Source of the DNA: an uncultured Candidatus Saccharibacteria bacterium
GTDB lineage: Bacteria > Patescibacteriota > Saccharimonadia > CAILAD01 > GCA-016700035
Direction: 5' to 3'
Assembly (NCBI GenBank): GCA_964583675.1
Contig: CAZOVH010000004.1
Coordinates: 39,275-97,791, forward strand
DNA length: 58,517 nucleotides
The notes beneath the pieces were generated by a model. The model saw only the letters and a list, made by a program, of their open reading frames with translations, ran no database searches and was not told the DNA's origin. The position numbers were made by a program, and so were the translations under genes. Shown here piece after piece: positions 23,497 through 58,517 of this stretch. The first letter of the stretch is position 1, and each line of letters starts with the position of its first letter.

Positions 23497-23573
23497 GGGC
23501 CCATAGCTCAGTTGGTTAGAGCGACAGCCTTTTAAGCTGTGCGTCCTGGGTTCGAATCCCAGTGGGCCCTCCA
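23497..23573 (+). tRNA. tRNA-Lys (anticodon TTT), CCA encoded
   Basis: GGGCCCA/TGGGCCC acceptor, ACAGC-CTTTTAA-GCTGT anticodon arm, CTGGG-TTCGAAT-CCCAG T arm. Confidence 0.95.
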
Positions 23574-23774: not shown

Positions 23775-24491
23775 ATGGAAACCCTCTCCCACAATCCCGA
23801 GGAAACTACGAATAAACCACAGAAGCTGGCCGATGAACTAAAAGCGATGATACCTCAAAGGCAGGAAATGGAGTCTGGCCGGATAGAAGCGATATTGCAA
23901 CAATTTGGGTCAGAGCAGCACAACATGGCCTCTGTGGGAGGTATCGAGATCATAGGGCTTGGCAATAAAGAGCAGATGGAGGCACTTGCCCCTGCTGCCA
24001 AGGCAGCACTAGATCGGTTGCAAGATCGGTTCGGGGGTCGACTTGAAACAGCATTCCCTGGACTCAAGATTTACTTTGTTGATGGAGCAATTAATACAGG
24101 TGGCGAGGCATTAGCAGATGAAAATGCAATAATTATGGATGCATCAAAAGCCGCAATGAGTGTCGGTGATGTAGAAACCCTGCTCGTCGAAATGGGCTAT
24201 CTTAATCCTGGCGACTGGACCTCTAAAGTTAACCCAAATCTAAGCTATGGAGAAATTACGATTGTGCACGAGATGGGCCATATGCTAGAAGCCCGAGCAT
24301 ATGGTGCAGAGGGGATTGGGTTCGCTTCCCTGCCGCCCGAGACTGCTGTAACAAAATATGGCAGCAAGGCGCCCAATGAGGATTATGCCGAAGCCTTCTT
24401 TTATGACACCTACGGTCTAGACGTTGGCTCTGATCGCAAAACTATTCTCGAGCGAGATATCGGCAATGTGACCTTGGCGTCAGCTGCTTAG
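23775..24491 (+). CDS. putative zinc metallopeptidase (HEMGH), cargo gene between att-like repeats
   Basis: TIVHEMGHMLE (HExxH) and a downstream NEDYAEAFF candidate third ligand. No signal peptide. Confidence 0.55.
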   Translation: METLSHNPEETTNKPQKLADELKAMIPQRQEMESGRIEAILQQFGSEQHNMASVGGIEIIGLGNKEQMEALAPAAKAALDRLQDRFGGRLETAFPGLKIYFVDGAINTGGEALADENAIIMDASKAAMSVGDVETLLVEMGYLNPGDWTSKVNPNLSYGEITIVHEMGHMLEARAYGAEGIGFASLPPETAVTKYGSKAPNEDYAEAFFYDTYGLDVGSDRKTILERDIGNVTLASAA

Positions 24492-24539: not shown

Positions 24540-24565
24540 CCCTCGCCTCGTGCGGGGGTTATTTA
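24540..24565. terminator. bidirectional terminator between the HEMGH gene and rimK
   Basis: CCCTCGC-ctcgt-GCGGGGG (7 bp including one G-U), T-rich on both sides. Confidence 0.55.
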
Positions 24566-25468
24566 CGCGCCAATTTTGTCGCGGCGGCGCTTACCTTTAG
24601 TGCGCTCAACAATAAAATCAATCATCACACCAGCAATATCTTTACCCGTCTGTGCTTCAATGCCCTCAAGGCTTGGTGAGCTATTTACTTCCAAAACCAA
24701 TGGACCACGCGTAGAACGAATAAGATCTACTCCGGCAATCGACATGCCGAGCGTTGAAGCCGCTTTGAGCGCCACATTTTGCTCTTTTTTTGAGAGCTCA
24801 ACCGGTGCCGATTCGCCACCGCGATGCAAGTTAGAACGGAACTCGCCTTCCTGACCCTTGCGCATCATCGCACCAACAATTTTATCGCCAACCACAATAA
24901 CGCGAATATCAGCGCCATCAGCTTCTTCGATAAACTCCTGCAAGATAAAATTTGCGTTAATTGAGTTAAAGGCTTCGATTACCGACTTGGCGGCTTTTTT
25001 AGTTTCCGCCAGAACCACGCCCTTGCCCTGCGTGCTTTCCAAAAGTTTTACCACCACCGGCGCACCACCAACCAACTCTAAAAGTTCAGCTGCATCCGAA
25101 GTCTGTGAGGCAAAGACGGTTTTAGGAATCCCGACACCAGCGCGAGCCAAAAGCTGCATGGAGCGCAGCTTATCACGCGAACGCACAAGGGCCAGCGAGC
25201 TGGTTGCAGTATAGGCACGCATCATTTCAAACTGCCGGAGTACCGCAGCGCCGTAGTTCGTGTAACGAGCCGCAATACGTGGAATCACCGCTTCTACTTC
25301 ATCAACCGAGCGATTTTCCCAATGTACGGAAGGGTTACGACTTTCGATTGCCATATACGCCTTAGTGTAATCAACCACCACGGGAGTATGGCCTTTCTTT
25401 TTTGCCGCTTCAACCAAACGTTTGGTTGAATAGTTATTTCGGCCAGCCGATAGAATTGCGATTTTCAT
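24563..25468 (-). CDS. rimK: RimK-type alpha-L-glutamate ligase (ATP-grasp)
   Basis: MKIAILS..., the typical RSNLHRGG motif, and 301 aa as in canonical RimK. Confidence 0.85.
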   Translation of the reverse strand: MKIAILSAGRNNYSTKRLVEAAKKKGHTPVVVDYTKAYMAIESRNPSVHWENRSVDEVEAVIPRIAARYTNYGAAVLRQFEMMRAYTATSSLALVRSRDKLRSMQLLARAGVGIPKTVFASQTSDAAELLELVGGAPVVVKLLESTQGKGVVLAETKKAAKSVIEAFNSINANFILQEFIEEADGADIRVIVVGDKIVGAMMRKGQEGEFRSNLHRGGESAPVELSKKEQNVALKAASTLGMSIAGVDLIRSTRGPLVLEVNSSPSLEGIEAQTGKDIAGVMIDFIVERTKGKRRRDKIGA

Positions 25469-26853
25469 GATTTTGTAATCTCCCCTCGGGATAGTTCAAC
25501 ATTAACTAAATAATTTCCACGCAACAATTTGCGCCCCAAAAGCATTGGTACCTTTTGGCTTTGACGATTCGTAAGAGTAAACTGCGTTTCGTGGTCACGG
25601 CCTTGGATACGTACTATTGTACGAATCTTATAGCGATCCTGCCACTGTCCGTTAGAACTTTTCACCTGAACAGCGACAAAATCACGACTGACACAGGTTA
25701 CATATTCTTCTGAGTGAGTTCGTCCACCAACAAAATGCGGCACCTTAAAATGAAGCTCATCGCCATCTTTTGTGTGTTTTATTTTGATACTCTCCGCATG
25801 CAGCGCGCCACTGTATGCGCCCGTATCAGTCTTGGCGGCCACATCAACAATACCAAACTCGGGCAAACCAACGAGCTCAATGCGGCCGATGATTTTTTTC
25901 GGTAATTTAGATGAAGCTTTACGATTATAGCGCTTAGCGATAGATCGCTTTAGATATGCAACAAAGCCCGGGATGTTCTGATCAATAAATGCGCCGGTTA
26001 CAATTTGTGAACCCTGATTAACTTCCAACACAGCTGCACGCCCAGAATTTTTATCCACAATAACATCAACGCCCGAAACTGAGAGATCCATAGCTTCGGC
26101 AGCGCGAACAGCTAGATCAAGTATCTTCTCGGGTGTCTTTTTTTCCTCTACAAGTTGAGCTTGTCCACCTGCAGATGTGTTATTGAGGTGAGATTTGCCC
26201 GAGCCTTTGCGAAAAATAATCATACCTGTCTCGCCGCCATACACCTGAACTCGCCAATCTCCATCGTTTGGAGCAAAATCCTGAATAATCCAATCAATCT
26301 GCGTCCCCTCAACCAACGACTTAGCCTGACGTCGAGTTTTTGCAAAATGATTGTCTTTGCCCTTTTGCCCAATGGTCGATTTAATGACAGCCGGATATTG
26401 CACAATTTCTGAAGCCAAAACATCCTGAATGTGTTTGTGCGATGCGTACATGGTACGCAGTGTCGGCACGCGTGATGCCCACAACTTCATTGTGGTAACC
26501 AGCTTGTTTGCAGCTCCTTTTTGCTCCACGGCCGCATCAATAAACGGCACACCCTTTGCCCTCAGGTAAATGGCCAGCGCTGCGGCAACATCCGGCATAC
26601 CTTCCCAGCCTTTAAAGTATACAAAATCGTAATCCGCAGGGTCTTTTTTACTTGTCCAGTCATATACCTGCGCTTTGCGCTTATCCACTACAAACACTAA
26701 GTCTTCCAGTGCCATTACTTCGCCATCCGCAAAACCAAAGTCTGCATATTTTTTTAAGCGACGCACAAAACCCGCCCCCCGAGTTGAGCCAGGTGCGGCG
26801 GCTTTTTGAAAAATAAACAGTACGCGTGGCTGCGATAGCGCTGGCTTAGTCAT
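25465..26853 (-). CDS. divergent ATP-grasp ligase fused to a C-terminal retropepsin-like peptidase (RimB/'ATP-dependent zinc protease' type)
   Basis: ATP-grasp core (PNDGDWRVQVYGGE, HLNNTSAGG, LEVNQGS) plus a C-terminal KTDTGAYSG ... NRQSQKVPMLLGRKLL module. ATGA overlap with rimK. Confidence 0.7.
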   Translation of the reverse strand: MTKPALSQPRVLFIFQKAAAPGSTRGAGFVRRLKKYADFGFADGEVMALEDLVFVVDKRKAQVYDWTSKKDPADYDFVYFKGWEGMPDVAAALAIYLRAKGVPFIDAAVEQKGAANKLVTTMKLWASRVPTLRTMYASHKHIQDVLASEIVQYPAVIKSTIGQKGKDNHFAKTRRQAKSLVEGTQIDWIIQDFAPNDGDWRVQVYGGETGMIIFRKGSGKSHLNNTSAGGQAQLVEEKKTPEKILDLAVRAAEAMDLSVSGVDVIVDKNSGRAAVLEVNQGSQIVTGAFIDQNIPGFVAYLKRSIAKRYNRKASSKLPKKIIGRIELVGLPEFGIVDVAAKTDTGAYSGALHAESIKIKHTKDGDELHFKVPHFVGGRTHSEEYVTCVSRDFVAVQVKSSNGQWQDRYKIRTIVRIQGRDHETQFTLTNRQSQKVPMLLGRKLLRGNYLVNVELSRGEITKS

Positions 26854-27787
26854 GCTTTTGCACCCCGGCTTTTACACTCATAAACTCCAACATGGCCTGC
26901 ATTTTGCGCTCTGGCTCGGCACCAAGCTGAATTGCGGGTGCCTCATTTACCTCGAGCACGACATGCTCACCGGTGTCTTTATTAATGAGCAAATCGAGAC
27001 CACAAAACTGTTCTCGCCCCACGAGTTTGGCGGCACGAATACTGTCGTTCTTTTGCGCGTCAGTTAGTACATCTGCACTAAAAAACTCAGCATCCGCATC
27101 TTGTGAGGTGTTATTGAGATGAGTTGTATCATCCTGACGGGCGCGCTTAATGACAAGCTTAATTTCTCCGCCAAGAATTAATACTCGATAATCGAAATCA
27201 TTCGGAATAAACGGTTGCGCGATAAATGTGTCGCTCTTATTTTCATCCAGTATGCGCACCAGTTCATCATAAGTATTTACGAGAAAGTTATTATTGCCAC
27301 CAAAAGCCTGAATACTTTTTAATACAAATGGAAACGCGAAAGGTGGGCGCTTCTTAAAGAGTTTTTTAAATTGGCGTACAGAAGTTGTAATGCCGTCGGG
27401 CAATGGAAGATTTTGATCGGCCAGCAATGCTTGCTGCCCAAGCTTAGACAATGGCGTAAAACGACTTACTTCTTGGGTAAAGTACTCGATGTCATGACGC
27501 TCGAGATACTTTGCAGCCGCCAACGATTGCTGCTGAGCTTTGTGGAACAGTTCAAAATACACCAAATCAAATTCACTCAGATCCATCCCAGTCATCGACT
27601 CAACAATGCGCATACTGCCATCCTCGAAATATATCTGGAGATCCTTGAGAGAACCTTGATAAAATTCCATACCAAAATCGCCCGCGCGTTCCGCCATAGG
27701 GTCGAACAGGAGTTTATAGTAGTCGGTTTTATGCTTCCGAAAACTAAAAAATACGAGAACTTTTTTCTTGGATTGGCTCTTCATCAT
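26846..27787 (-). CDS. divergent ATP-grasp ligase, paralogue of the N-terminal part of the 462-aa protein
   Basis: PNDFDYRVLILGGE, HLNNTSQDA and LEVNEAP align with the neighbour's motifs. 8-nt overlap downstream. Confidence 0.7.
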   Translation of the reverse strand: MMKSQSKKKVLVFFSFRKHKTDYYKLLFDPMAERAGDFGMEFYQGSLKDLQIYFEDGSMRIVESMTGMDLSEFDLVYFELFHKAQQQSLAAAKYLERHDIEYFTQEVSRFTPLSKLGQQALLADQNLPLPDGITTSVRQFKKLFKKRPPFAFPFVLKSIQAFGGNNNFLVNTYDELVRILDENKSDTFIAQPFIPNDFDYRVLILGGEIKLVIKRARQDDTTHLNNTSQDADAEFFSADVLTDAQKNDSIRAAKLVGREQFCGLDLLINKDTGEHVVLEVNEAPAIQLGAEPERKMQAMLEFMSVKAGVQKHD

Positions 27788-27821
27788 CGTTTTTAGAATT
27801 AGATGATGATTATACTATATT

Positions 27822-28640
27822 TTAGTCTTCTTGTCCAGATGTAGCGAGAATATTTTCCCTCACTAAAGGCTCGACGATAGCCGACGGCAGACGCTCGGGA
27901 ATTAGAAGCTTTTCTTTTTCAATCCAGCCTAGACGATAGAGTGTAGCAATCGACTGCAAACTCGATTTACCAATATAGAGCATCCAGCGCTGATCTTCGG
28001 GAAGCGCATCAGCTAGAACCTTTTGCTCAGCGTACTCTAGAGCACCGCTACGTGCTACGTACGGTGTGCCATGCGTGAGCTCTCCGCCACTGTTATACGG
28101 CCGCAACGCACCCCCTATTGCCCCTTTCACGGCTTTGCCATAATCTCCTTCCGGATCATCCCGTCTACGAACTTTTAAGAACTCATGCGCGCACTCAACC
28201 ATGGTTCCACCTTCTAGGCGCTTCTCTAGCGCTGCCAAATAGGTAAAATTCACTCGACGATCTTTACCAAACAGTGCATCTAACGAAGCGGCCTCTGTCG
28301 CAACTCCACCAGCCTCGAGCCAGCCCGAAGATCGTGCAGCGCCGAGTGTAGAAAAAAGCTCTAAGCCTAAAAGTTCGGCATTGTGATTTTGCAAAACATG
28401 CGTAATTTCGTGATCTAATACCGGTAGAGCGCCGGCTGGCCTGGCTTGTCCGAGAGTTCGACCAAACTTCTGTGGAATCATGACACATCGCTTTATACTC
28501 GTAACACCAAGTGTTTTTCGACTTGCCTTAGGATCAATCACTGCGCGCCACTTGCCGTCTGGTGCAGGCTCATCAGATTCAGGGTCGTAGTCTTTCTGCT
28601 CGCTGAGCAACCCATATTCTGCAAGCGTCATTTCAACCAT
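27822..28640 (-). CDS. HExxH metallopeptidase (possibly DUF1704/MATCAP-like or DUF4157-like)
   Basis: LDHEITHVLQN followed about 30 aa later by GWLEAGGVATE. The family call comes from remembered motif patterns only. Confidence 0.5.
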   Translation of the reverse strand: MVEMTLAEYGLLSEQKDYDPESDEPAPDGKWRAVIDPKASRKTLGVTSIKRCVMIPQKFGRTLGQARPAGALPVLDHEITHVLQNHNAELLGLELFSTLGAARSSGWLEAGGVATEAASLDALFGKDRRVNFTYLAALEKRLEGGTMVECAHEFLKVRRRDDPEGDYGKAVKGAIGGALRPYNSGGELTHGTPYVARSGALEYAEQKVLADALPEDQRWMLYIGKSSLQSIATLYRLGWIEKEKLLIPERLPSAIVEPLVRENILATSGQED

Positions 28641-28670
28641 CTGCCTTAACTCTTCGGCAGAAACTTTTCT

Positions 28671-29675
28671 TTACTTGAGTAATTCCGGATCTACGTCGGC
28701 ATATGTATAATCTGGCCGGGTCCCACCTTTTTTAAATTCATAGGTTTCTCGCAGTTGACGTAACGCTTCAGGAATATGCCCTTTATCACCTTCGCGATCT
28801 ATGCCACTTATAAATTTATCAATCCTATCTAGAAATCTCGCAAAGCTTTCGCGATCCACAAAACCGGCTTCGACCGATTCCTCCCGATCCGTACGACGTC
28901 GAAGTGCCGGTAATGCCACTTTCATCCGCTCTTTTTGTGTATCAGATAAAATATACCCCTCACGATCCTGCCTAATTAAAGTGAGTGCCTCACGATATAC
29001 GGCGGCTGTAAGCAAATTTACACGCTCAACATGCATTGTGAGTAATTCTTTTTTAAGTTCCGCATTTTTGCCACTAATACTACCCACCTGTTTTTGCACA
29101 TCACGATAGTAGCCACGCATATCGCGTAGTGCCTCTGCTTTTTCCAAAAACAATTCTGGGTCACGCAAACCACGCTCATAAGAAGGATCTGTTTCCGCAT
29201 CATAGCTACCAGTTTCATCTAGTTGACGTAGGTTACTTTCAAGTATTTTACGGGCAAACAGCTTTGACTCCGATAGCACTTCAAGCTTCGGCCGACGCTC
29301 GGAGTCAATAATTCGGCGCGCCATCTCTGCCCGGACATAGCTTGCTCGCTGCTCTTCTGGCACGTCATGGCCTTCCGGAAAATGCTCAGCAAAAACTTCC
29401 GGCTGCAAAAAATACTCAACACAATACTTTTCTTCACGTATCGACATATCGTATATTTCGCGCATAGACTTCTCGGGCTTACGAATATTTTCTGGCGACA
29501 ACACTCCAAAAGGCACCTCGCCATTGGCTAGCGCATGCTCAAAAGACGCAACTTCAAGCCGATCTTCTTCGCTCAATTCGCGTTCGGGTGGACGAGAAAG
29601 CGCTTCGATCGCCCCTCTAAATTCTTCGCCCTCAGGATTAAGTCGCTCTGGGAATACACGTATCCCCTCACTCAT
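28671..29675 (-). CDS. Glu/Arg-rich, probably all-helical hypothetical protein
   Basis: 334 aa with no recognised motif. In the same frame as the downstream peptidase ORF, separated by one TAA plus 10 codons. Confidence 0.5.
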   Translation of the reverse strand: MSEGIRVFPERLNPEGEEFRGAIEALSRPPERELSEEDRLEVASFEHALANGEVPFGVLSPENIRKPEKSMREIYDMSIREEKYCVEYFLQPEVFAEHFPEGHDVPEEQRASYVRAEMARRIIDSERRPKLEVLSESKLFARKILESNLRQLDETGSYDAETDPSYERGLRDPELFLEKAEALRDMRGYYRDVQKQVGSISGKNAELKKELLTMHVERVNLLTAAVYREALTLIRQDREGYILSDTQKERMKVALPALRRRTDREESVEAGFVDRESFARFLDRIDKFISGIDREGDKGHIPEALRQLRETYEFKKGGTRPDYTYADVDPELLK

Positions 29676-30199
29676 TTTTTCTTACCTTTTTTGCCTTTTT
29701 TATCGTCATCTTCTTTAGTTTTTCGTTTCCAGACGGTAATAATTATGAGCCATGCAGTCATAGCCGTGAGTAACCACAAACGATTCTCAGCAGCCAGCGC
29801 GATTAAGTTATATTCATTTAAAACCTTTGTAGCGATTTCTTCTTGCAGATAGCTTTGCGTATAGCCAATAAGAGTCGCCGCCGTGAGAAAAGCAAAAATA
29901 AAACTACGCAAACCAAAGCGACCGCCAACCGATGCTGTCTTGCCAAGAGATAAGCCAACCGCAACAACCAATAGAACTATCAGCTGCACAAAGGCTGGAT
30001 CAATCGGCCCACTAATTGAGGCATCGAGCTGCTTAGCTAAAAAGCCACCAAGCTGATCGGCGACAAAAAAGCCAGCCAACAATGCAGTTGCGATCCGCTT
30101 TAGGCGACCCTCACCAAATAAAAATGCCAAAATAAAGAACCCGCCAATTACGGCGAAAACATAGATGTTTCCATCAACAGTGAGTGGCCCAAACTGCAT
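29672..30199 (-). CDS. small 4-5 TM membrane protein with poly-Lys tail (CvpA-like architecture)
   Basis: Hydrophobic segments throughout, C-terminal KTKEDDDKKGKKGKKK. ATGA overlap with the next gene. Confidence 0.5.
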   Translation of the reverse strand: MQFGPLTVDGNIYVFAVIGGFFILAFLFGEGRLKRIATALLAGFFVADQLGGFLAKQLDASISGPIDPAFVQLIVLLVVAVGLSLGKTASVGGRFGLRSFIFAFLTAATLIGYTQSYLQEEIATKVLNEYNLIALAAENRLWLLTAMTAWLIIITVWKRKTKEDDDKKGKKGKKK

Positions 30200-30239
30200 A
30201 TGCTTGAATTATACACCCCTGCTTAAGAGAAATGCGTCT

Positions 30240-30268
30240 TTGACATAAGAAAAATAGGGGTCTACAAT
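30240..30268 (+). promoter_or_regulatory. near-consensus promoter for the 30303-31713 gene trio
   Basis: TTGACA, a 17-nt spacer, then TACAAT. The -10 box overlaps the ATG at 30267, which argues for the ATG at 30303 as the real start. Confidence 0.55.
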
Positions 30269-30302
30269 GCCTTCAAATCGTACCTTCCAAGATTGGATTG
30301 CT

Positions 30303-30839
30303 ATGAACACCACACCTCGACTCTGTGTTGAGCTCAATGGCTGCATCGCCAACAACCTGGCATTTATGGGAATGCCAGACTTTGGGCCTCCAACCATCCG
30401 CACTCCACCCATCATTGGCGCCTTCGAAGCATTGGCGTGGCTGAACGGACCATTCGCCTACGCCGGTGAAGTACATCTCACAATCTCGTGCACAGATGCG
30501 GAGTTCCACGAACAGGCCGTACAGTGGCTCATCGCTGAACGCTTCAGCCTAAGAACAGGCATTATGCAGGAGAGCATTCACGAGTACGCCACACTTGATG
30601 AACTTGCGAAACTCGCAACTGGCCTACACCCAACAACAGTTGTGGGTGCGCACGTGCAGCCGCTCGTCAGGTTCTTGCTGGCTCGGCAGCAGCTTCTGTT
30701 GGACCCGCATGACTGCGAACAGCACGAATATCACGCCGTACGCCAAACCCGTATGGGCGTGGGAATCCAACGCGTCACCGATTGGCATGAAGTTATGCAG
30801 CTTTGCTTGCGTGAACTCGCCAACTCCTCCCCGACCTAG
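30303..30839 (+). CDS. hypothetical protein with degenerate HAD/5'(3')-deoxyribonucleotidase-like layout
   Basis: RLCVELNGCIANN sits where HAD motif I (DxDGV) would be, then P.IGAFEAL..L and VHLTISCTD. G+C is about 57% by hand count. Start chosen at the second ATG. Confidence 0.4.
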   Translation: MNTTPRLCVELNGCIANNLAFMGMPDFGPPTIRTPPIIGAFEALAWLNGPFAYAGEVHLTISCTDAEFHEQAVQWLIAERFSLRTGIMQESIHEYATLDELAKLATGLHPTTVVGAHVQPLVRFLLARQQLLLDPHDCEQHEYHAVRQTRMGVGIQRVTDWHEVMQLCLRELANSSPT

Positions 30840-30855
30840 TGCCGGGGTTTTTATT
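30829..30855 (+). terminator. short GC hairpin plus T-run
   Basis: CCCCG-9 nt-CGGGG followed by TTTTTATT. The stop codon lies in the loop. Confidence 0.45.
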
Positions 30856-30897
30856 GCCTGTTTGCTTGCAAAAGCAGCAGGCTGACGATATGATACT

Positions 30898-31353
30898 TTG
30901 CACATTTCCGAAAAAAGGAAGAGTACCTTGACTCGACTTCTTGCAGTAGAAGACACACCGCTCACCGATCCGGAACTAGTGCATCGAGTAGCAACCTTTC
31001 ATGGTGCACCACAGGTGTACTGGGACACCTATAAGGCAATCAGAGCATTGAGTGAGCAAGCTGCCTTGTTGGGCAATAAAGAGCTCGCCGGTCGCCTTAA
31101 CTCAGTTTGCACCAAGCTGTCTGGAGCTGACGAAATCGTGTTCTTGCTTCGTGGTGATGCTGCCACCGATGAGCCATCCATGCTTCTGGGCTTCGACATA
31201 TTGGTGTGCTTCTGCACTTTTGCAGAAACGGACAGGCATCACCTACTCCACGAAGTAGAAAGTATTCTCACTTCTGTGGTCTACGACTTCCAACCCGTAC
31301 CAGAAATCGCGGCCCTATTGCCCGCAACATACGGCGTAACATATTTCTCGTAA
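30898..31353 (+). CDS. hypothetical protein (start uncertain, TTG in ORF track)
   Basis: High GC3 in this frame. No recognisable motif. Confidence 0.4.
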   Translation: MHISEKRKSTLTRLLAVEDTPLTDPELVHRVATFHGAPQVYWDTYKAIRALSEQAALLGNKELAGRLNSVCTKLSGADEIVFLLRGDAATDEPSMLLGFDILVCFCTFAETDRHHLLHEVESILTSVVYDFQPVPEIAALLPATYGVTYFS

Positions 31354-31377
31354 ACCCCCGAACCTTGGAGCAAAATC

Positions 31378-31713
31378 ATGAATGATCAGCTGACCACCCA
31401 GAGACAATTCCGTCTCGGCATTGCCGTCGCACCCGAGCCGAAGTTCTCTGACTGCCACGCGCAGACGCTCACCATCCAGCTCATCAGCGGGCCGGCCTTG
31501 GAGCCTCTGGATATCGAACTGTTTGAAAGTGGCATCATGGCAAAACTCGCCGAGCTACCCAGCTCAGTCATTGATCCAATGCCGACGTTCATGGGCTACA
31601 GCCTACAGTCTTTCGAGATTGCCTACATCGGCCCACAGGGAGATCGTGAGAGGGTTCAGAACGCGATTATTGCCCTCTTTCTCGAAACCTTCAACGCAGC
31701 GGTTCGCGTCTAA
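31378..31713 (+). CDS. hypothetical 111-aa protein
   Basis: High GC3, GGAG 8 nt upstream of the ATG, followed by a strong terminator. Confidence 0.5.
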   Translation: MNDQLTTQRQFRLGIAVAPEPKFSDCHAQTLTIQLISGPALEPLDIELFESGIMAKLAELPSSVIDPMPTFMGYSLQSFEIAYIGPQGDRERVQNAIIALFLETFNAAVRV

Positions 31714-31723
31714 GCACCCGCAC

Positions 31724-31751
31724 CCCCAACACAAAGTTGGGGTCTTTTTAT
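31724..31751 (+). terminator. rho-independent terminator, overlaps the stop of the convergent J-protein gene
   Basis: CCCCAAC-acaaa-GTTGGGG followed by TCTTTTTATTT. Confidence 0.75.
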
Positions 31752-32659
31752 TTAAAGAAGCCTTTTTTCTTAGAAACTTTTTGAAATTCTTCCAAAGCTT
31801 GCTTCTGCTTATGGCTAAGCTTCTGAGGAATCTCAATACTCACTTCAACCAAATGATCACCGTGTCGATGTGTGCCTGGAATTGGCATACCTTTGCCAGA
31901 AAGTTTTAGGATTTTACCAGGCTGCGTACCTGCTGGCACCTTGATGGTTATCTCGCCTTCGAGCGTCTTAATATCAACTTCGGTACCAAGCGCAGCATCA
32001 ATCATGTCAATTGTAATTCGCGAAACAAGGCTCGCACCGTGTCGTTCAAAACCCTTTGGTTCGCGCACATGCACATCTACATACAAATCACCACGAGCAC
32101 CGCCCTGCCCATACTCACCTTTTCCAGCCATGCGGATGGACTGACCATTATCAATGCCAGCGGGGATTTTTACTTTCACCGATTCGTTTTTACGTTCACC
32201 AGTAGTGCGGTCCATAACACGCAAATTTAGCTCGCGGGTGGCACCTTTTACTGCCTCATCAAAATCGATTGCTAATGCCACCTGCACATCACGTGGTCGG
32301 TAGCGCATACCACCAAAAATTTCTGAAAAAATATCACCAAAGCCACCAGCTCCAGAAAAATCAAACTGCACACCATCAAAACCACCGCCAAATGGATTAC
32401 CTCCTGCATAGGGATTGCCACCTGGTCCACCTGCGTTTGCCGCACCAGCTGAATGTCCAAACTGGTCGTAAGCAGCTCGTTTTTGATCGTCCGACAGAAC
32501 CTCGTAAGCCTCACCTGCCTCTTTAAACTTCTGCTCGTCACCACCTTCACGATCTGGATGATATTTCAGGGCAGCTTTCTTAAAAGCCTTTTTTATTTCT
32601 TCTTGGCTAGCACCCTTGGCAACGCCAAGCACTTCATAGTAATCGCGCTTGCTGCTCAT
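31748..32659 (-). CDS. J-domain co-chaperone without zinc-finger region (CbpA/type II DnaJ)
   Basis: DYYEVLGV...HPDR J domain, a Gly/Phe-rich linker, and two C-terminal beta domains. No CxxCxGxG repeats. Confidence 0.85.
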
Positions 32660-33468
32660 GCTTTATCCTCAGTGTTTTTCGGTTTTTTTGTAGTTTTGCG
32701 GGCTGGTTTTGGTGTGGGCTCTGACTTTTGATCAGCCGGAGCTTGCATCGTCGGCAGCATGCTCGCCAAACGCGATCCAGTAAATACCGAAGGTGCGGAT
32801 TGCTGCTTCTTGTGGTGATGTTCTGAGTGATTTTTCTGTGGCACAGCTGGCTTTTCTTTCTTTGGGGCGGGTGCCAGTACGGCTGCTGCGTGCTTAGAGG
32901 TAATAGTATGGCGCTTATCGGCGGTGCGCGCCAAGGCGGCATTACTCACCCCACGAAAACCAATGTACACCAGCTCGGCGCCGCGGCGCTTAGATTCTAA
33001 AACTGCCGGCATTAAATCGCCATCCGACGAGAGCAAGACCAAACGAACATTGTCGCCAGATGCACGAATCATATCGGTAGCAATCGTTACATCCACACCT
33101 TTTTCCACCAGCACTGGCTCACGGTGGCCACACTCCACGCATGGCTTACCATCACGTACCAAAAGATGACCCGCTTCAACATAATCTACGTGCTGCGATT
33201 CCAGTACTTTCTTCCATGCCTCAGCATCAGTGGCGTAGCGTTCGGTGCGCTCTTTGAGCTCTGGTGTTTTATCAATAATATGAATTTTTGAAGCATAGTA
33301 GCGAATGCTCGCGGTGCGTACGCCAGGATCTTGTAAAACATTTTCGAAGAGCTTGCGAATGTTTACGCGCGAAAGCTCATCGCGATAACGAATAAGTTTC
33401 CGCGATGCGAGAGAGTCACGCAACTGATACACAAAGTTTTCACCGTCAATAAAAAAGATTGTTTTCAT
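32656..33468 (-). CDS. NYN/LabA-like domain protein with basic low-complexity tail
   Basis: IFFIDGENF and [12 protein letters not shown] motifs. C-terminal Lys/Pro/Ala-rich tail. Confidence 0.65.
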
Positions 33469-33791
33469 GATTTTTTCTTACCCTTTGGTTTGTCATTAAA
33501 AGCTACAAAGCCAGCCACCCCAGCCCCAACCAGCGTAAGTACTGCTACGTCATAGGGATGATAACGGAGGTACGCGGAAGGCCCCACGCACGCGAGAAAG
33601 TACTTCCCGTCATCTCGATTTGACCACCACTGCCAGAAAAAATAGACATCATCCCAACTATTTTGATACGAGTTCACCGCCTCTCCGCTGGCGCACTCTT
33701 GCGACAGCTGCTCGCTGACAGTAGTGGTAGCAAAGTACCCCGCCGTGATGAGCAGCCCTATCGTAATGGTGAGTGCAGCAAGTGATTTCAA
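33465..33791 (-). CDS. small membrane protein
   Basis: TM helices at both ends, Trp-rich middle, 4-nt overlap downstream. Confidence 0.4.
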   Translation of the reverse strand: MKSLAALTITIGLLITAGYFATTTVSEQLSQECASGEAVNSYQNSWDDVYFFWQWWSNRDDGKYFLACVGPSAYLRYHPYDVAVLTLVGAGVAGFVAFNDKPKGKKKS

Positions 33792-33795
33792 TACT

Positions 33796-34158
33796 TTATT
33801 TTCCTTCTTCCCATAAAACGATTCTGTGCTTAAACCACTTTTCTTGAAATTCTAGTTTGCTTTCCAACTCAGCCTCTGTGTACTTCGTGCCATCACTGGC
33901 AATTAACTTGTCTTCGTTATCATCTTTGCGATGCACATAGCCAATACACTGAGCCGAGACTGTCTTTAGCGGCTTGTCAGAAGACAAATAGTACACATCA
34001 ATTGGGTCACCATCACCCGCCTTGGTATCGGGTACGAATCCATAATTTAGAGGGTAGACCATGTCAGGAAATTTTGGGTGCACAGAACCCAAGGGACGAT
34101 CGAATTCAACTTCAATCGTTGCCCCTAGAAAATCTTTGCCCTGTGCAATTTTTGTCAT
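33796..34158 (-). CDS. ppa: short inorganic pyrophosphatase-family protein
   Basis: YPLNYGFVPDTKAGDGDPIDV matches the family I PPase active-site region. Only 120 aa. Confidence 0.6.
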   Translation of the reverse strand: MTKIAQGKDFLGATIEVEFDRPLGSVHPKFPDMVYPLNYGFVPDTKAGDGDPIDVYYLSSDKPLKTVSAQCIGYVHRKDDNEDKLIASDGTKYTEAELESKLEFQEKWFKHRIVLWEEGK

Positions 34159-34162
34159 CTAG

Positions 34163-36622
<2,460 letters not shown>

Positions 36623-36630
<8 letters not shown>

Positions 36631-37321
36631 TGAGTACTTCCTCCAATTTCTTTCCTGTGAGAGCTACAAGACTGGTTACTTTTGGATAATCCTGACGCGT
36701 TGGCCCGACAACCCCAACATAGCTACTGGCCGAATACGGGCTTTCAAACTTAGCCACCACCATTGCCATGCCACTGGTGCGCGCAAACGGATTCTCTTGT
36801 CCGATAAACACACCAAGATCGTCCTGAAAGCCGGTTGCCAACAGCCATTCTGAGAGTGCATCGAGATAACGCGCGGCAGCAGCAGCTCGGAGCTGTAGAG
36901 CAAATTCTGGCTGTGAAAAAAGCTGATGCAAGCCATGGTAATACACGGTGTCCGAGAGCGTTGCAAACGCCATATTGCCGGTCATGTCTGAAAGCGTTTC
37001 GGTGGCAATCTTGATGGCGCGATCAGCCCGATCCTTTAAAGATGCCACCCTCTTTTCCATAGTATGGACGGTACGCTGCTTTGGCTCGAGCACAGCTAAA
37101 TTATTTACATAATAGCGGTAACCCTTGTCGGTAGGTACGCGTCCAGCCGAGATATGTGGCTGGTAAATATAGTCGGCGCGCTCCAGGGCGGCCATTTCGG
37201 CACGGATTGTGGCCGAGCTGACATCAAACACCTCACATAGCGCGTGAGAGCTCACCGGCTCAGCAGTAGCTGAGTACTGATGAACAATTTCCATAAGAAT
37301 TGCGGCTTGGCGTTCTGTCAT
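36623..37321 (-). CDS. hrcA: heat-inducible repressor HrcA (short form)
   Basis: Winged-helix N-terminus ([11 protein letters not shown]), operon context, and CIRCE operators upstream. Confidence 0.8.
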
Positions 37322-50485: not shown

Positions 50486-50562
50486 TGGTGGCTGCGGGTG
50501 GATTTGAACCACCGACCTCTGGCTTATGAGTCCATTGCTCTGACCAACTGAGCTACGCAGCC
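50486..50562 (-). tRNA. elongator tRNA-Met (anticodon CAT), CCA encoded
   Basis: GGCTGCG/CGCAGCC acceptor and CTCATAA loop. The 5' half closely resembles my recollection of E. coli metT (not checked against a reference). The anticodon stem has 3 Watson-Crick pairs flanked by A-G mismatches. Confidence 0.8.
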
Positions 50563-50635: not shown

Positions 50636-53059
50636 TTAACCGCTAGTCGAGCTTGGCTTACTGACCACAAAACTTATGCGGTATTTAAAGAGCGGAATGG
50701 TTACAACTCGCAAGTGATGCCAGATTGTATAACGCACACTCGGATCCTGCTCAACGAGCGGCTTGCGATGTCTCTGCCAGTCATACACAACGTATATTGC
50801 CGTAAAAAGCAGTGCGAGCGGAACTGGCAAAAACCAATAAGGAATGCCTGTTTCCGGCAAAATTGTGGCCACAAGAGTTGGATTTGCTAGTCCGACCGGA
50901 TCAACAATGAGACCATTTTCTTGACCATCATCATCCAAAGCGCCACCATCGGTAATACTATATGTAAGCTTAATTGCTTTCTCGCCACCTATTTCTTCCT
51001 CCGTTAAAGCTGCTCCATCGATGGTAACGAAGTTATTTGTAGCGGAGCGGAACTTACGCGGCTTAAATCCATTCACCCCCTCATCGGAAAACGTATACAT
51101 TGTGATGCTTGCCGTATCACCACGAGAACAGTTTAGGGTAAAGTCCGTCAGGCCAAATGGATATTGATACCCATTGTCTCGTGCGTTCAACGCCGCAAAC
51201 TCGAGAACTGCTACGTTACTATTTTCACGACAGCCAGTTACGGCAAAAGTTATATAGTGATCGCCGTTCACGTCAACAAAAGAGCTAACTGTTGGCTGTA
51301 GTTTATCGGCGGTGCCGTCTTCATTCCCATCTCCATTGTTTGGAGCGCCATCTTCCACTACATCTGAAATTCCATCAGCATCAGCATCTGTCGCGGAACC
51401 AATCTCCACGTTTTGCGCAAACTCACTTGTTGAGCCGAAACCGGTTGATGAAGCCCCATCAATAGCCGTTGTGGTTGCCGATAGGGCCTTGTTTGCATAA
51501 TCACCACTCACCGCAAGATTCGCAGTTAGGTTCGTGCCCGGACTCACAGTAACAGCACCAATAAACTCCTTACCTGGTCCATAGCCAAAAATAGTAGATG
51601 AGTCATTCGCAAAAAATTCCACTCTGTAACTATTTGACGGACTATCGGCAGCATCAAGATCATAATTTACAGCAATTTGACCACCTGTCTGTTTCGCCGA
51701 ATTAAGCTGAGGGGAGTTTATTCTTCCATTGGCACCTGTATCTGCATCTCCAGAATCATTCTCATTGGGTCCATACTGCTCAAACACATCGGGAACAAAA
51801 TCAGCCGGATCGCCGGTATCGGTTTGACGCGAAATATCGATACCCAAATTGCTGTTACCAAAAACATTCAGAGAAAAAACCCCAATATCAGAAATACTAT
51901 TCCCCAATATACTGAGCCTCTGCCCAGATAGTTCATAGGATATGGTTGGCAGATTAAACACACTAACATTTACCCCAAATCCCTTAATTCCCTTGATGAG
52001 ATTACCTTCACCAGCATTTGTGCCACCCAGTTTATTCTGGTCGCCCATAGAATTTATAACTCCTGCTCCATTCGTAAAACTAGGATTAATATTTCCGGCA
52101 TAATCAGTCCCGATATAATTTCCCTGCACAACATTATTATCTGAACTAAATATTACATTCGCGGTATTGCCACTAATAACATTGCGTTGGCCTGTATTCG
52201 GTCCGCCAACAATGTTGCCGCCGTCATTAGTCATATTAATGCCGAAAGAAAACGGAGGATTTAATCCATTAGCATCGGCTGCTTCAGGTGTTAAATCTGT
52301 AACACCATCTTTTCCAATTCCAATATAATTTCCGTAAACTTCTGAGGCAGAACCAGCAACAAAGATTGCAGCACTAGCGCTATCGTCTGATTTTGCATAA
52401 ATCACATTGCGATCCTCGGGATTTATACCTCCTACCAAAGCACCCGTGGAGATTAAGCCTAACGCCGCATCATTTCTTGCTGGGCCAGGTGTAATTCCGT
52501 CTGCTTTTACACCCAAATAATTACCCTGAACTATGGCATTTGCAGCTAATACAGTTATTGCGCGATTCAATGCACCCCCATCTGTGATGCCACCAAAGTT
52601 AAAAATTGAAAGCCCCTGAACAATGCAACTAGCAGCTGGAATATTTAAGCCCGAAGCAGTGCCTACCGGCTGGCCATCACCGGATATGTTCTCGCCATTT
52701 ATTTCAACAAGAAGAGTACCGTTTAGTGGATTAGGTGCGGCGGCAGTGTTGGCACTTGCTCCTGGTTGTGTGTAGCCATCAATCCTTACCTTTTCTGTGA
52801 GTGCGGGTAATGCCGTACCAACGGTAATCGTCTTAACCCCAGAGCCAGGAATTGTAAACTCAATGACATCCATCGTAGCCGGGTTGCCATTGCTGTTGGC
52901 GTCATTAATAGCCTCACGCAATGACCCAGCACCTGAATCATTCGTGTTCGTCACGGTAAACGTAGCCGCATTTGCTTTGCCGACAAAAACCATGCTCAGT
53001 ATAAATACTGCGACCAGCGCAACACTCATCTGTGCAACGAACTTTTGTATACCTCTCAT
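50636..53059 (-). CDS. large sortase-anchored surface protein: CSLREA-type N-terminus, parallel beta-helix repeats, LPETG signal
   Basis: Signal peptide, TNTNDSGAGSLREAINDAN, many GNYIG/NVISGN repeats, and a C-terminal LPETG plus TM. Confidence 0.8.
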   Translation of the reverse strand: MRGIQKFVAQMSVALVAVFILSMVFVGKANAATFTVTNTNDSGAGSLREAINDANSNGNPATMDVIEFTIPGSGVKTITVGTALPALTEKVRIDGYTQPGASANTAAAPNPLNGTLLVEINGENISGDGQPVGTASGLNIPAASCIVQGLSIFNFGGITDGGALNRAITVLAANAIVQGNYLGVKADGITPGPARNDAALGLISTGALVGGINPEDRNVIYAKSDDSASAAIFVAGSASEVYGNYIGIGKDGVTDLTPEAADANGLNPPFSFGINMTNDGGNIVGGPNTGQRNVISGNTANVIFSSDNNVVQGNYIGTDYAGNINPSFTNGAGVINSMGDQNKLGGTNAGEGNLIKGIKGFGVNVSVFNLPTISYELSGQRLSILGNSISDIGVFSLNVFGNSNLGIDISRQTDTGDPADFVPDVFEQYGPNENDSGDADTGANGRINSPQLNSAKQTGGQIAVNYDLDAADSPSNSYRVEFFANDSSTIFGYGPGKEFIGAVTVSPGTNLTANLAVSGDYANKALSATTTAIDGASSTGFGSTSEFAQNVEIGSATDADADGISDVVEDGAPNNGDGNEDGTADKLQPTVSSFVDVNGDHYITFAVTGCRENSNVAVLEFAALNARDNGYQYPFGLTDFTLNCSRGDTASITMYTFSDEGVNGFKPRKFRSATNNFVTIDGAALTEEEIGGEKAIKLTYSITDGGALDDDGQENGLIVDPVGLANPTLVATILPETGIPYWFLPVPLALLFTAIYVVYDWQRHRKPLVEQDPSVRYTIWHHLRVVTIPLFKYRISFVVSKPSSTSG

Positions 53060-53279: not shown

Positions 53280-53355
53280 TGGTAGCGGGGGCAGGATTCG
53301 AACCTGCGACCTTCGGGTTATGAGCCCGACGAGCTGCCAGCTGCTCCACCCCGCG
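53280..53355 (-). tRNA. initiator tRNA-fMet (anticodon CAT), CCA encoded
   Basis: Three consecutive G-C pairs closing the anticodon loop (TCGGG-CTCATAA-CCCGA). Position 1-72 is unpaired (C1/U72). The 5' half is nearly identical to my recollection of E. coli tRNA-fMet (not checked against a reference). Confidence 0.9.
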
Positions 53356-58441: not shown

Positions 58442-58517
58442 GGGCCCGTAGCTCAGTGGTTAGAGCAGTCGACTCATAATCGATTGGCCGCTGGTTCAAA
58501 TCCAGCCGGGCCCACCA
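58442..58517 (+). tRNA. tRNA-Ile2 (anticodon CAT, lysidine-dependent), CCA encoded
   Basis: Perfect cloverleaf. The body (AGCTCAGTGGTTAGAGCAG.CGACTCATAATCG.TTGG.CGCTGGTTCAA.TCCAGC) closely matches my recollection of E. coli ileX rather than Met tRNAs (not checked against a reference). tilS is present. Confidence 0.75.

Follow-up and report, generated by a model that had tools for sequence, protein, structure and literature searches.

Saccharibacteria are ultrasmall epibionts whose genomes do not exceed about 1 Mb and from which most biosynthetic pathways are gone; why, then, do they keep a row of three RimK-family ligase genes beside the chaperone operon? The question is raised by a locus at positions 24563-30199 of the window, by which we mean the whole stretch of 58,517 nucleotides analyzed here, from an uncultured Candidatus Saccharibacteria bacterium (assembly GCA_964583675.1, contig CAZOVH010000004.1, positions 39,275 to 97,791). 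Despite the reduced genomes, nearly all of the loci that we sampled retain the three genes. The first-pass annotation of the window had read the locus as one coupled six-gene operon for writing and erasing amino-acid tails. Judged by its predicted promoters and by comparison with relatives, the locus is composed of two modules, not a single operon, and each module has its own conserved predicted promoter. Module 1 is a membrane-protein gene followed by a putative metallopeptidase gene that is broken in the window; module 2 is the ligase trio. We think it somewhat better than an even bet that this two-module locus represents a lineage-specific expansion of the RimK/RimB chemistry by which glutamate is added and removed. 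The features on which the argument depends are the following.

30208-30213, minus strand: -10 box TATAAT of predicted promoter P1, 8 nt 5' of the membrane-protein ATG (direct sequence reading)
29672-30199, minus strand: open reading frame (ORF) of the membrane protein, 175 residues (ORF list)
27822-29675, minus strand: whole peptidase gene, 617 codons, with an in-frame TAA inside (comparison with intact relatives)
28671-29675, minus strand: 334-residue ORF, the N-terminal part of the peptidase gene (ORF list)
28671-28673, minus strand: premature TAA at codon 335 (CAG, Gln, in relatives)
27822-28640, minus strand: 272-residue HExxH ORF, the C-terminal part of the peptidase gene (ORF list)
28398-28412, minus strand: putative zinc-binding and catalytic motif HEITH (H, E and H invariant in alignments of 56 and 63 sequences)
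28314-28316, minus strand: presumed third zinc ligand, Glu109 of the 272-residue ORF (alignment conservation)
27809-27837, minus strand: predicted promoter P2, TGGACA-N17-TATAAT, ahead of the ligase trio (consensus match and conservation)
26846-27787, minus strand: divergent ATP-grasp ligase of the RimK/LysX family, 313 residues (PF08443, 46.5 bits)
25465-26853, minus strand: ligase-RimB-like fusion, 462 residues (PF08443, 55.3 bits; PF05618, 54.4 bits)
about 25489-25899, minus strand: RimB-like retropepsin domain of the fusion, with DTG at 25819-25827 (PF05618)
24563-25468, minus strand: canonical RimK (alpha-L-glutamate ligase), 301 residues, the final gene of the locus (NF007764, PF18030 and PF08443)

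The tight packing to which the first-pass annotation had drawn attention is real, and its coordinates stand. ATGA overlaps of 4 nt join the membrane-protein gene to the peptidase gene (29672-29675) and the fusion gene to rimK (25465-25468), the genes for the 313- and 462-residue proteins overlap by 8 nt (26846-26853), and the two intergenic gaps are 30 and 34 nt, within the limit of 35 nt given before. All of the motifs listed at that time (HEITH, GWLEAGG, HLNNTS, PND.D.RV...GGE, DTGA, RSNLHRGG and the tail KKGKKGKKK) were found again. The count of six genes was not upheld, since the 30-nt gap is the in-frame continuation of a reading frame behind a TAA; the genes number five, of which one is interrupted.

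The TATAAT box ahead of the first ATG, also pointed out before, was confirmed in the sequence. The element GTGTATAAT-N3/4-AGCATATG around it is invariant in six loci among which the DNA further upstream cannot be aligned, and thus the box stands above chance. Its position argues for a leaderless or near-leaderless transcript that would start from the membrane-protein gene. A second predicted promoter, P2, lies before the gene for the 313-residue protein, with its -35 box inside the final codons of the peptidase gene. It matches the promoter consensus at 11 of 12 positions and is invariant in seven loci, including two relatives (L001 and L002) that are both without the peptidase gene. The idea of one coupled operon does not agree with this invariant internal promoter. 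The division into two modules matches the evolutionary pattern, with a conserved trio and an optional pair of membrane-protein and peptidase genes. No terminator was predicted 3' of rimK, where the fold was no better than that of shuffled sequence (z = 0.01).

This evolutionary pattern was obtained from two scans, one of metagenomes seeded with the 462-residue fusion protein (66 loci, of which 31 have at least 2.6 kb of upstream sequence and were assessable) and one of genomes for the peptidase family, seeded with a 12-sequence alignment. Both in the 66 metagenome loci and in the genome loci, the trio is nearly always kept, and the gene for the 313-residue protein is seldom missing where the fusion gene is present. 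What lies upstream of the trio in the fusion-seeded scan is variable: no accessory gene in 23 of the 31 assessable loci, a gene for a protein of about 346 residues in five, and in one locus each the membrane protein with the peptidase, the membrane protein with a MurF-like ligase, and an extra RimK-like gene. From these counts, the trio is the conserved core of the locus in the Saccharibacteria sequences compared, and the membrane-protein/peptidase pair is a rare, optional accessory. Conservation of the whole block as a unit, which had been put forward as a check, therefore holds for the trio and fails for the pair, which accompanies it in 1 of the 31 loci, the peptidase being absent from L001-L004. 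Two of these, L001 and L002, whose fusion proteins are 76% and 69% identical to that of the window, have the membrane protein, the 313-residue protein, the 462-residue protein and RimK, and the peptidase is cleanly absent. The more distant L003 and L004 have neither the membrane protein nor the peptidase and carry the gene for the protein of about 346 residues instead.

Searches seeded with the peptidase recovered the order membrane protein, peptidase, 313-residue protein, 462-residue protein and RimK in L005, L006/L012, L007, L011, L013 and L015, and the same order from the peptidase on in L010, where the contig starts at the peptidase gene. On the contig shared by L006 and L012, two tandem peptidase paralogs of 585 and 604 residues follow the membrane-protein gene (L006, 6194-9815). 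Coupling of the peptidase/membrane-protein pair to RimK-type ligases was observed in L005-L008, L010-L015 and L021. The partners can differ. At L014, the order is membrane protein, peptidase, MurF-like ligase, stand-alone RimB-like gene and RimK, so that the MurF-like gene replaces the two divergent ATP-grasp genes; at L020, a similar gene occupies the slot after the membrane protein. These Mur ligases (L014, 7882-9183; L020, 4733-6025) score 201 and 145 bits with TIGR01143, the cutoff of which is 288.6; they are closest to MurF and may be housekeeping cell-wall enzymes. At the distant L009, other ATP-grasp genes, RimK-like and Ddl-like, adjoin the peptidase. Many Saccharibacteria carry, translationally coupled upstream of the trio, a fourth gene of some 350 codons; it is found in L003 (6039-7079), L004 (6025-7068), L024-L029, L034, L040, L044 and L048. 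A profile of this protein of about 346 residues, compared with the PDB, gave top matches that are all RimK (E of 0.07-0.13), and its K, E and N positions are invariant; it is a probable, very divergent ATP-grasp protein. Homology of the L003 and L004 genes with the 334- or 272-residue ORF of the window was rejected by BLASTP. At L066 (4896-5942), the same slot holds an unrelated sequence that matches RimK and YheCD ATP-grasp models.

The comparison with relatives also shows what became of the peptidase gene in the window. A word-indexed search with the 272-residue ORF found no homologs; an exhaustive HMMER search with the same ORF found 278 cluster representatives at E<=1e-3. Nearly all of these are 590-670 residues long, and the ORF aligns to their residues from about 340 to 616. 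The closest homolog (P0121, 617 residues) begins with the sequence of the 334-residue ORF of the window. Across the 30-nt gap, the DNA reads ...DPELLK-stop-RKVSAEELRQMVEMTLAEYG..., so that the open frame continues past a single TAA, and codon 335, TAA in the window, is CAG (Gln) in L005 and L011. The peptidase gene of L005 has 1854 nt, exactly the length in the window, the window gene shows no further lesions, the intact 617-residue relatives are 85-94% identical to the window peptidase and those of L005 and L011 92-94%, and the peptidase is a single ORF in 13 of 13 other loci. The 334- and 272-residue ORFs are one gene of 617 codons cut by a nonsense codon. The Glu/Arg-rich helical protein that had been listed as a component in its own right is thus the N-terminal half of the HExxH peptidase.

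The stop codon is genuine, because the identical split recurs in four independent sequencing runs (Logan assemblies SRR13208906, SRR13208907, SRR29782973 and SRR29782974), the DNA of which is 99.98-100% identical to the window; a sequencing or assembly error was rejected on this ground. Reassignment of the codon was rejected as well, since TAA terminates three other genes at the locus. For each half compared with intact orthologs, the ratio of nonsynonymous to synonymous substitution rates (dN/dS, or omega) comes to about 0.04-0.05, equal to the value among intact genes, and therefore the mutation of Gln335 to a stop appears to be either recent or tolerated. Because of this mutation, the window peptidase is probably inactivated, or at best made as two fragments.

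Whether the two fragments could work together has to be weighed. The 272-residue half would be re-initiated at an ATG located 10 codons past the stop and would join the 334-residue helical half. The secondary-structure map of the model described below places the stop in a linker between the helical N-terminal part and the strand-containing HExxH part, the ATG lies in frame 30 nt downstream of the stop, the gene is unchanged in length and free of other lesions, omega in both halves is like that of intact orthologs, and the stop-bearing strain was sampled in two different sequencing-run series. However, the downstream ATG is ancestral; it also encodes Met in the intact gene of L005, and thus it did not evolve for re-initiation. 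Furthermore, the sampled stop-bearing copies are all about 100% identical, so that decay would not have had time to appear, relatives can do without the gene, and the split version was seen in none of the 13 other loci. We regard a working two-chain peptidase as a doubtful, though by no means negligible, prospect.

What kind of enzyme the intact gene would encode can be judged from its family. The residues H, E, H and E (the last at +28 after the second His), together with R, Y and E, are invariant in both peptidase alignments; the spacing is HExxH-X27-E, with H422, E423, H426 and E454 in full-length numbering. An AlphaFold2 model of an intact relative is one compact unit, with a mean predicted local distance difference test (pLDDT) value of 93.7 and a predicted template modeling (pTM) score of 0.92. 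The topology comprises strands at 376-407, a helix at 416-436 with the HExxH motif and a helix at 450-469 with the Glu, all with pLDDT above 90. The model thus has the generic features of gluzincins (clan MA(E)), an HExxH helix, a Glu on the next helix and a beta-sheet before them, and the protein is presumed to be a gluzincin-like HExxH...E metallopeptidase, a putative zinc enzyme. The HExxH...E protein and its multi-pass membrane partner of the first-pass annotation are both real.

Membership of the peptidase in DUF1704/MATCAP was not supported by profile, PDB-sequence or Foldseek tests. No Pfam or NCBIfam family matched the window ORFs or eight full-length relatives, and the MATCAP/DUF1704 model (PF08014) gave no match to these at E<=0.1; it touches 1 of 56 family members (E = 0.18). 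The family profile against all PDB sequences (E<=10) gave two matches, both unrelated. Foldseek searches of the PDB with the full-length and catalytic-half models, both of high confidence, returned no MATCAP among the 50 matches listed for each, and none of those listed reached E<=1e-3. The lowest E was 4e-3 with the full-length model and 0.5 with the catalytic-half model, and no TM-score exceeded 0.24. The full-length matches to helical repeat proteins and transporters were dismissed as noise. Other families were tried and set aside: M3 oligopeptidases (PepF/PrlC), for which hhalign against Escherichia coli PrlC gave a probability of 1.6% and covered the HExxH segment alone, and for which the Foldseek values of the PepF structures 2H1N and 2H1J were E of 0.02-0.17 with TM about 0.2; DUF4157/eCIS_core, which touches 7 of 56 members at a sub-threshold E of 0.008 or weaker; and M48, also sub-threshold (E = 0.03-0.06). 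By these profile and fold comparisons, the peptidase of about 610 residues is a member of an unclassified Patescibacteria family.

The 175-residue protein encoded directly 5' of the peptidase gene in loci with both, usually with a 4-nt overlap, has several hydrophobic segments and reads as a multi-pass membrane protein that ends in a Lys-rich tail. No Pfam or NCBIfam family matched it; the motifs FGE[GN]R and YNL[IA]A and the charged tail are conserved in 11 orthologs. The gene caller used for public assemblies (L086 and L089; a contig of SRR13208906 with 99.98% identical DNA) chose shorter starts for this protein (152 residues rather than 175) and for the fusion protein (433 rather than 462). 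The longer starts agree with the conserved N-termini of the orthologs.

The three proteins of module 2 are of unequal standing. The 301-residue protein matches the RimK equivalog model NF007764 over residues 1-291 with 368.8 bits (cutoff 331), as well as Rimk_N (PF18030, 116 bits) and RimK (PF08443, 217 bits); by the curated equivalog cutoff it is a canonical RimK, and it closes the locus as the first-pass annotation had said. Between the window and relatives at a synonymous divergence (dS) of about 0.7-1.0, the amino-acid identity of RimK is 99.3-99.7%, giving an omega of about 0.006-0.011. By this estimate, RimK is under the strongest constraint in the locus, that is, very strong purifying selection. 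The 313- and 462-residue proteins pass PF08443 (cutoff 21 bits) and are each other's closest paralogs, at E = 5e-21, compared with 8e-12 for the 462-residue protein against RimK, so that the earlier description of two mutually paralogous ATP-grasp proteins is borne out. With the rimK_fam model TIGR00768, they score 64.5 and 86.3 bits, both under the cutoff of 143.4. The closest solved relatives of the 462-residue ligase are LysX (3VPD and 1UC8, E of about 1e-8) and then RimK. Membership in an ordinary biosynthetic ATP-grasp family unrelated to the peptidases had been named as an outcome that would speak against the write/erase reading; the best family for all three ligases is rimK_fam/RimK, and no assignment to Ddl, GshB or cyanophycin synthetase was obtained.

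The retropepsin-like module that had been noticed at the end of the 462-residue protein was recovered as PF05618 over residues 321-455 (cutoff 27 bits), with D343-T-G-A present and D343 and G345 invariant, and it matches the solved PF05618 structures 9G59 and 2PMA. Its score with the RimB model NF052261 is 75.4 bits, below the cutoff of 200. More than 200 homologs have the same architecture, a ligase followed by a RimB-like domain. The ATP-grasp set is present in the fusion as an ATP-binding Lys, a hinge Q/E-x-F and a Mg-binding D...E-x-N; across 29 homologs, residues K158, Q191, D263, E277 and N279 do not vary, in 121 each is conserved to at least 95%, and the family signatures HLNNTSAGG and E-x-NQGSQIVTG are conserved. 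Equivalent segments (VLK, QPF, LDL and LEVN) are visible in the 313-residue protein. On these scores, the two divergent ligases and the RimB-like domain belong to the broader families and are not orthologs of the characterized enzymes.

The position of the trio may bear on its use, and it is referred to one further feature.

31748-37321, minus strand: hrcA-grpE-dnaK-NYN-dnaJ cluster, located upstream and co-directional (syntenic in L001, L002 and L005-L008)

Among fusion-containing loci, dnaJ lies upstream of the trio and in the same direction in 32 of 34. The distance from dnaJ to the trio ranges from 58 nt to about 5 kb, with accessory genes inserted between them, and is sometimes 58-190 nt. 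This proximity suggests read-through from, or co-regulation with, hrcA-grpE-dnaK-dnaJ.

What might module 2 do? RimK adds alpha-linked glutamates to ribosomal protein S6 at its C-terminus and makes free poly-alpha-L-glutamate in vitro (PMC11957791, PMC12239564). RimB, an endopeptidase of the retropepsin-like type, stimulates RimK and takes Glu off polyglutamylated RpsF; cleavage of poly-Glu tails has been shown only for P. fluorescens RimB and Desulfotalea psychrophila RimBK (PMC11957791). Because this published biology is the best template, we read module 2 as an expanded ligase-protease system acting on a carboxylate-terminated peptide or protein. RimK would most likely polymerize alpha-L-glutamate onto a C-terminal carboxylate, the target being S6 by analogy, or make free poly-Glu. 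The two divergent RimK/LysX-type paralogs would most likely add further ATP-dependent ligations to the same substrate, such as priming or the addition of a different residue or linkage. The retropepsin-like domain, as a dimer, would most likely cleave the acidic tail or polymer, and it may modulate the ligases as RimB does RimK. The site just downstream of hrcA-grpE-dnaK-dnaJ suggests a use in stress or proteostasis adaptation. The membrane protein with its polycationic tail and the peptidase of about 610 residues would be an accessory that degrades or trims peptide products at the membrane.

Several points weigh against this expansion of RimK/RimB chemistry or restrict it. Since the paralogs score under the rimK_fam cutoff and the RimB-like domain under the RimB equivalog cutoff, their activities may differ from those of RimK and RimB. 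The gene for S6, rpsF, was not found in the window or in the 90 loci examined, and among the window ORFs of at least 45 codons no acidic C-terminus was seen, except in the peptidase and in a 49-codon ORF at 51718-51867 that ends in EE. The tails of DnaK, GrpE and DnaJ were also examined as substrates, and none is Glu-terminated. The link between peptidase and ligases is not obligatory, because the peptidase was found with no ligase or membrane partner nearby in Andersenbacteria (L016, 5548-7362) and Dojkabacteria (L019, 3235-5058). The dN/dS values of the two peptidase halves would fit a dead peptidase and a working two-chain peptidase alike. The adjacency to dnaJ could be mere conserved gene order, the window locus having its own promoters. 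Finally, in the cultured relative Southlakia epibionticum, in which the gene order is dnaJ, membrane protein, stand-alone PF05618 protein and RimK, the stand-alone RimB-like protein and RimK are non-essential by transposon sequencing (Tn-seq; PMC10633639 supplement). The earlier proposal that the system has an important target is thus to be toned down: the very low omega of RimK speaks for it, but the Tn-seq result for the Southlakia pair speaks against it.

A bolder version of the same chemistry deserves mention. The locus could be a Saccharibacteria modifier of protein C-termini with several specificities, a bacterial counterpart of the tubulin TTL/TTLL-MATCAP/CCP cycle located beside the dnaK heat-shock cluster, in which RimK and its paralogs (with a variable fourth ligase in some lineages) write mixed tails on S6 or another core protein, the fused retropepsin cuts internally and a zinc peptidase of about 610 residues, tethered by the small polycationic membrane protein, trims the ends. 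We hold this to be rather unlikely; the locus would be of greater interest if it were true that three ligases write heterogeneous protein tails.

The ligases may instead build a free, non-ribosomal poly-amino acid or peptide, such as poly-alpha-glutamate or a branched cyanophycin-like polymer, which the RimB-like domain and the zinc peptidase would recycle and the Lys-rich tail of the membrane protein would bind as a polyanion. Such a role would suit the free poly-alpha-L-glutamate that RimK makes in vitro under stimulation by RimB (PMC11957791). It would also suit the several ligase paralogs with a variable fourth ATP-grasp gene in other lineages, the MurF-like Mur ligase in the same slot at L014 and L020, the conserved charged tail of the membrane protein, and a neighborhood in which no candidate protein substrate was found. 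We know of no such polymer from Saccharibacteria, however. In addition, the Mur ligase, being closest to MurF, may be a housekeeping cell-wall enzyme, and the RimK of the window passes the equivalog model for the S6 ligase. We therefore judge a free polymer to be improbable on balance.

Another possibility is that the two paralogs have nothing to do with RimK tailing and are carrier-protein ligases of the LysX/ArgX type, cofactor ligases of the MptN/CofF type or modifiers of peptidoglycan stem peptides. LysX structures come slightly ahead of RimK for the 462-residue protein, its loop SHLNNTSAGGQ aligns to HWITNTARGGQ of LysX, the LysX, MptN and CofF models all match below threshold, and MurF-like, Ddl-like, MurT/GatD and LytR genes lie near some loci. 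The scores, however, are far under the cutoffs (LysX, 70 against 275.6 bits; MptN, 69 against 350), and no LysW-like carrier or lysZYJK genes were found nearby in the window and L001-L004. Tetrahydromethanopterin (H4MPT) and F420 are not expected in Saccharibacteria. The cell-wall genes vary between loci. The coupling of the paralogs to a canonical RimK is invariable, as is the fusion to a RimB-like protease. We find this assignment quite improbable.

Least of all do we credit an intact six-gene operon in which three ligases, two erasers (the retropepsin and a DUF1704/MATCAP carboxypeptidase) and helical and membrane subunits are all needed for an important target, a view already largely refuted on gene count and co-conservation. 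In its favor, the close spacing and the overlaps of the genes stand, no catalytic motif is lacking and the five-gene arrangement recurs in several relatives. Against it, the supposed helical subunit and the HExxH protein belong to a single stop-broken gene, the invariant P2 divides the locus, only 1 of the 31 assessable loci has the pair beside the trio, the peptidase is missing from close relatives, no MATCAP or DUF1704 signal was obtained, and a related RimB-like and RimK pair is non-essential in a cultured relative.

Some further features of the surroundings were recorded. Within the chaperone cluster, dnaJ is at 31748-32659, and an NYN-domain gene (predicted RNase) at 32656-33468 on the minus strand lies between dnaK and dnaJ and is kept in L001, L002 and L005-L008. 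Three small plus-strand ORFs (30267-31713; 190, 151 and 111 residues) lie between dnaJ and the membrane-protein gene, divergent from P1; a promoter-like site, TTGACA-N17-TACAAT (30240-30268), precedes the first of them. None of the three matches a Pfam family, and homologs of one or more of them occur at the same place in L002, L005, L007 and L011. On the other side, convergent with rimK, a 238-residue ORF on the plus strand (23775-24491) has an HExxH motif of its own (IVHEMGHMLEA). It has no Pfam match, NCBIfam gave just one sub-threshold match (flagellinolysin, E = 0.086), and no counterpart was found at any relative's locus; the relatives have at this position a glycosyltransferase or a gene like class-I glutamine amidotransferase/Peptidase_C26. 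The peptidase genes of Andersenbacteria and Dojkabacteria have as neighbors HIT, Peptidase_C39-like and MurJ genes (L016) and Tam41 and arginase genes (L019). Three tRNA-Met (CAT) genes lie within 8 kb of one another (50486-50562, 53280-53355 and 58442-58517), tRNA-Arg and tRNA-His genes are at its start, and a tRNA-Lys gene is at 23497-23573.

The retention of the trio, together with a RimK nearly frozen in sequence, makes the locus a testable case for post-translational or peptide-polymer chemistry in organisms whose regulation is little understood. It also defines a sizeable unclassified metallopeptidase family; this counts 278 cluster representatives, its fold is predicted with confidence, and neither the PDB nor Pfam offers a close match. 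For follow-up work, it matters that the peptidase is one gene, broken in the window strain and optional in the clade, and that the trio has its own predicted promoter.

Compared with known systems, the combination, beside dnaJ, of a canonical RimK with two divergent paralogs and a fusion in reversed order appears to be new: we found no characterized system with this architecture, in agreement with the first-pass annotation, and in the literature library searched there was no paper linking RimK to Saccharibacteria or Patescibacteria. The LysX/ArgX carrier-protein ligases include the closest solved structures to the ligase domain of the 462-residue protein and have a similar substrate-loop sequence, but the window proteins score far below the family cutoff, and neither a LysW carrier nor downstream pathway genes were found. 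MATCAP/DUF1704 and the M1, M2, M3, M32 and M48 gluzincins likewise have HExxH with a downstream Glu on the next helix and a small beta-sheet before it; M2, M3 and M32 resemble the window peptidase in their large size, in their mainly helical build and in the place of the motif, about two-thirds of the way along the chain, and the trimming of C-terminal tails by MATCAP offers an analogous idea for its function. The window peptidase differs from all of these in lacking a significant sequence, profile or PDB fold match and in its HExxH-to-Glu spacing of 27 residues.

The RimABK (RimK-RimB) system of Pseudomonas fluorescens was reportedly described by Little et al. in 2016 and Grenga et al. in 2020; a later account is that of Little et al. 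in 2025 (PMC11957791). It has in common with the window locus a canonical RimK gene beside a PF05618 retropepsin-like (DTG) peptidase (PMC11957791), a suggested balance of ligase and protease, and a suggested link with environmental adaptation. Unlike it, the window locus is without RimA, the phosphodiesterase of cyclic di-GMP (c-di-GMP), and has a third ligase paralog; its peptidase domain, at 75 bits against the RimB cutoff of 200, is not stand-alone but fused C-terminally to a divergent second ligase. In P. aeruginosa, the RloA-RloB-RloC operon also encodes a retropepsin-like peptidase of PF05618 together with an ATP-grasp protein and a membrane protein (PMC12239564). However, RloA is secreted and has signal peptides, RloB is a seven-transmembrane inactive transglutaminase unrelated to the 175-residue protein (PMC12239564), and RloA models score 16-40 bits on the retropepsin domain of the window. 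RimBK of D. psychrophila, a hybrid protease shown experimentally to be active, likewise has a RimB-type protease and a RimK-family ATP-grasp domain in one polypeptide (PMC11957791). The order of the domains is reversed: RimBK has RimB N-terminal to a bona fide RimK, whereas the window fusion has its RimB-like domain at the C-terminus (321-455), with a divergent ligase part and a separate canonical RimK kept beside it. The distribution differs as well, RimBK being reported mainly from Flavobacteriales and Rhodobacterales (PMC11957791) and the fusion of the window type having been found mainly in Saccharibacteria.

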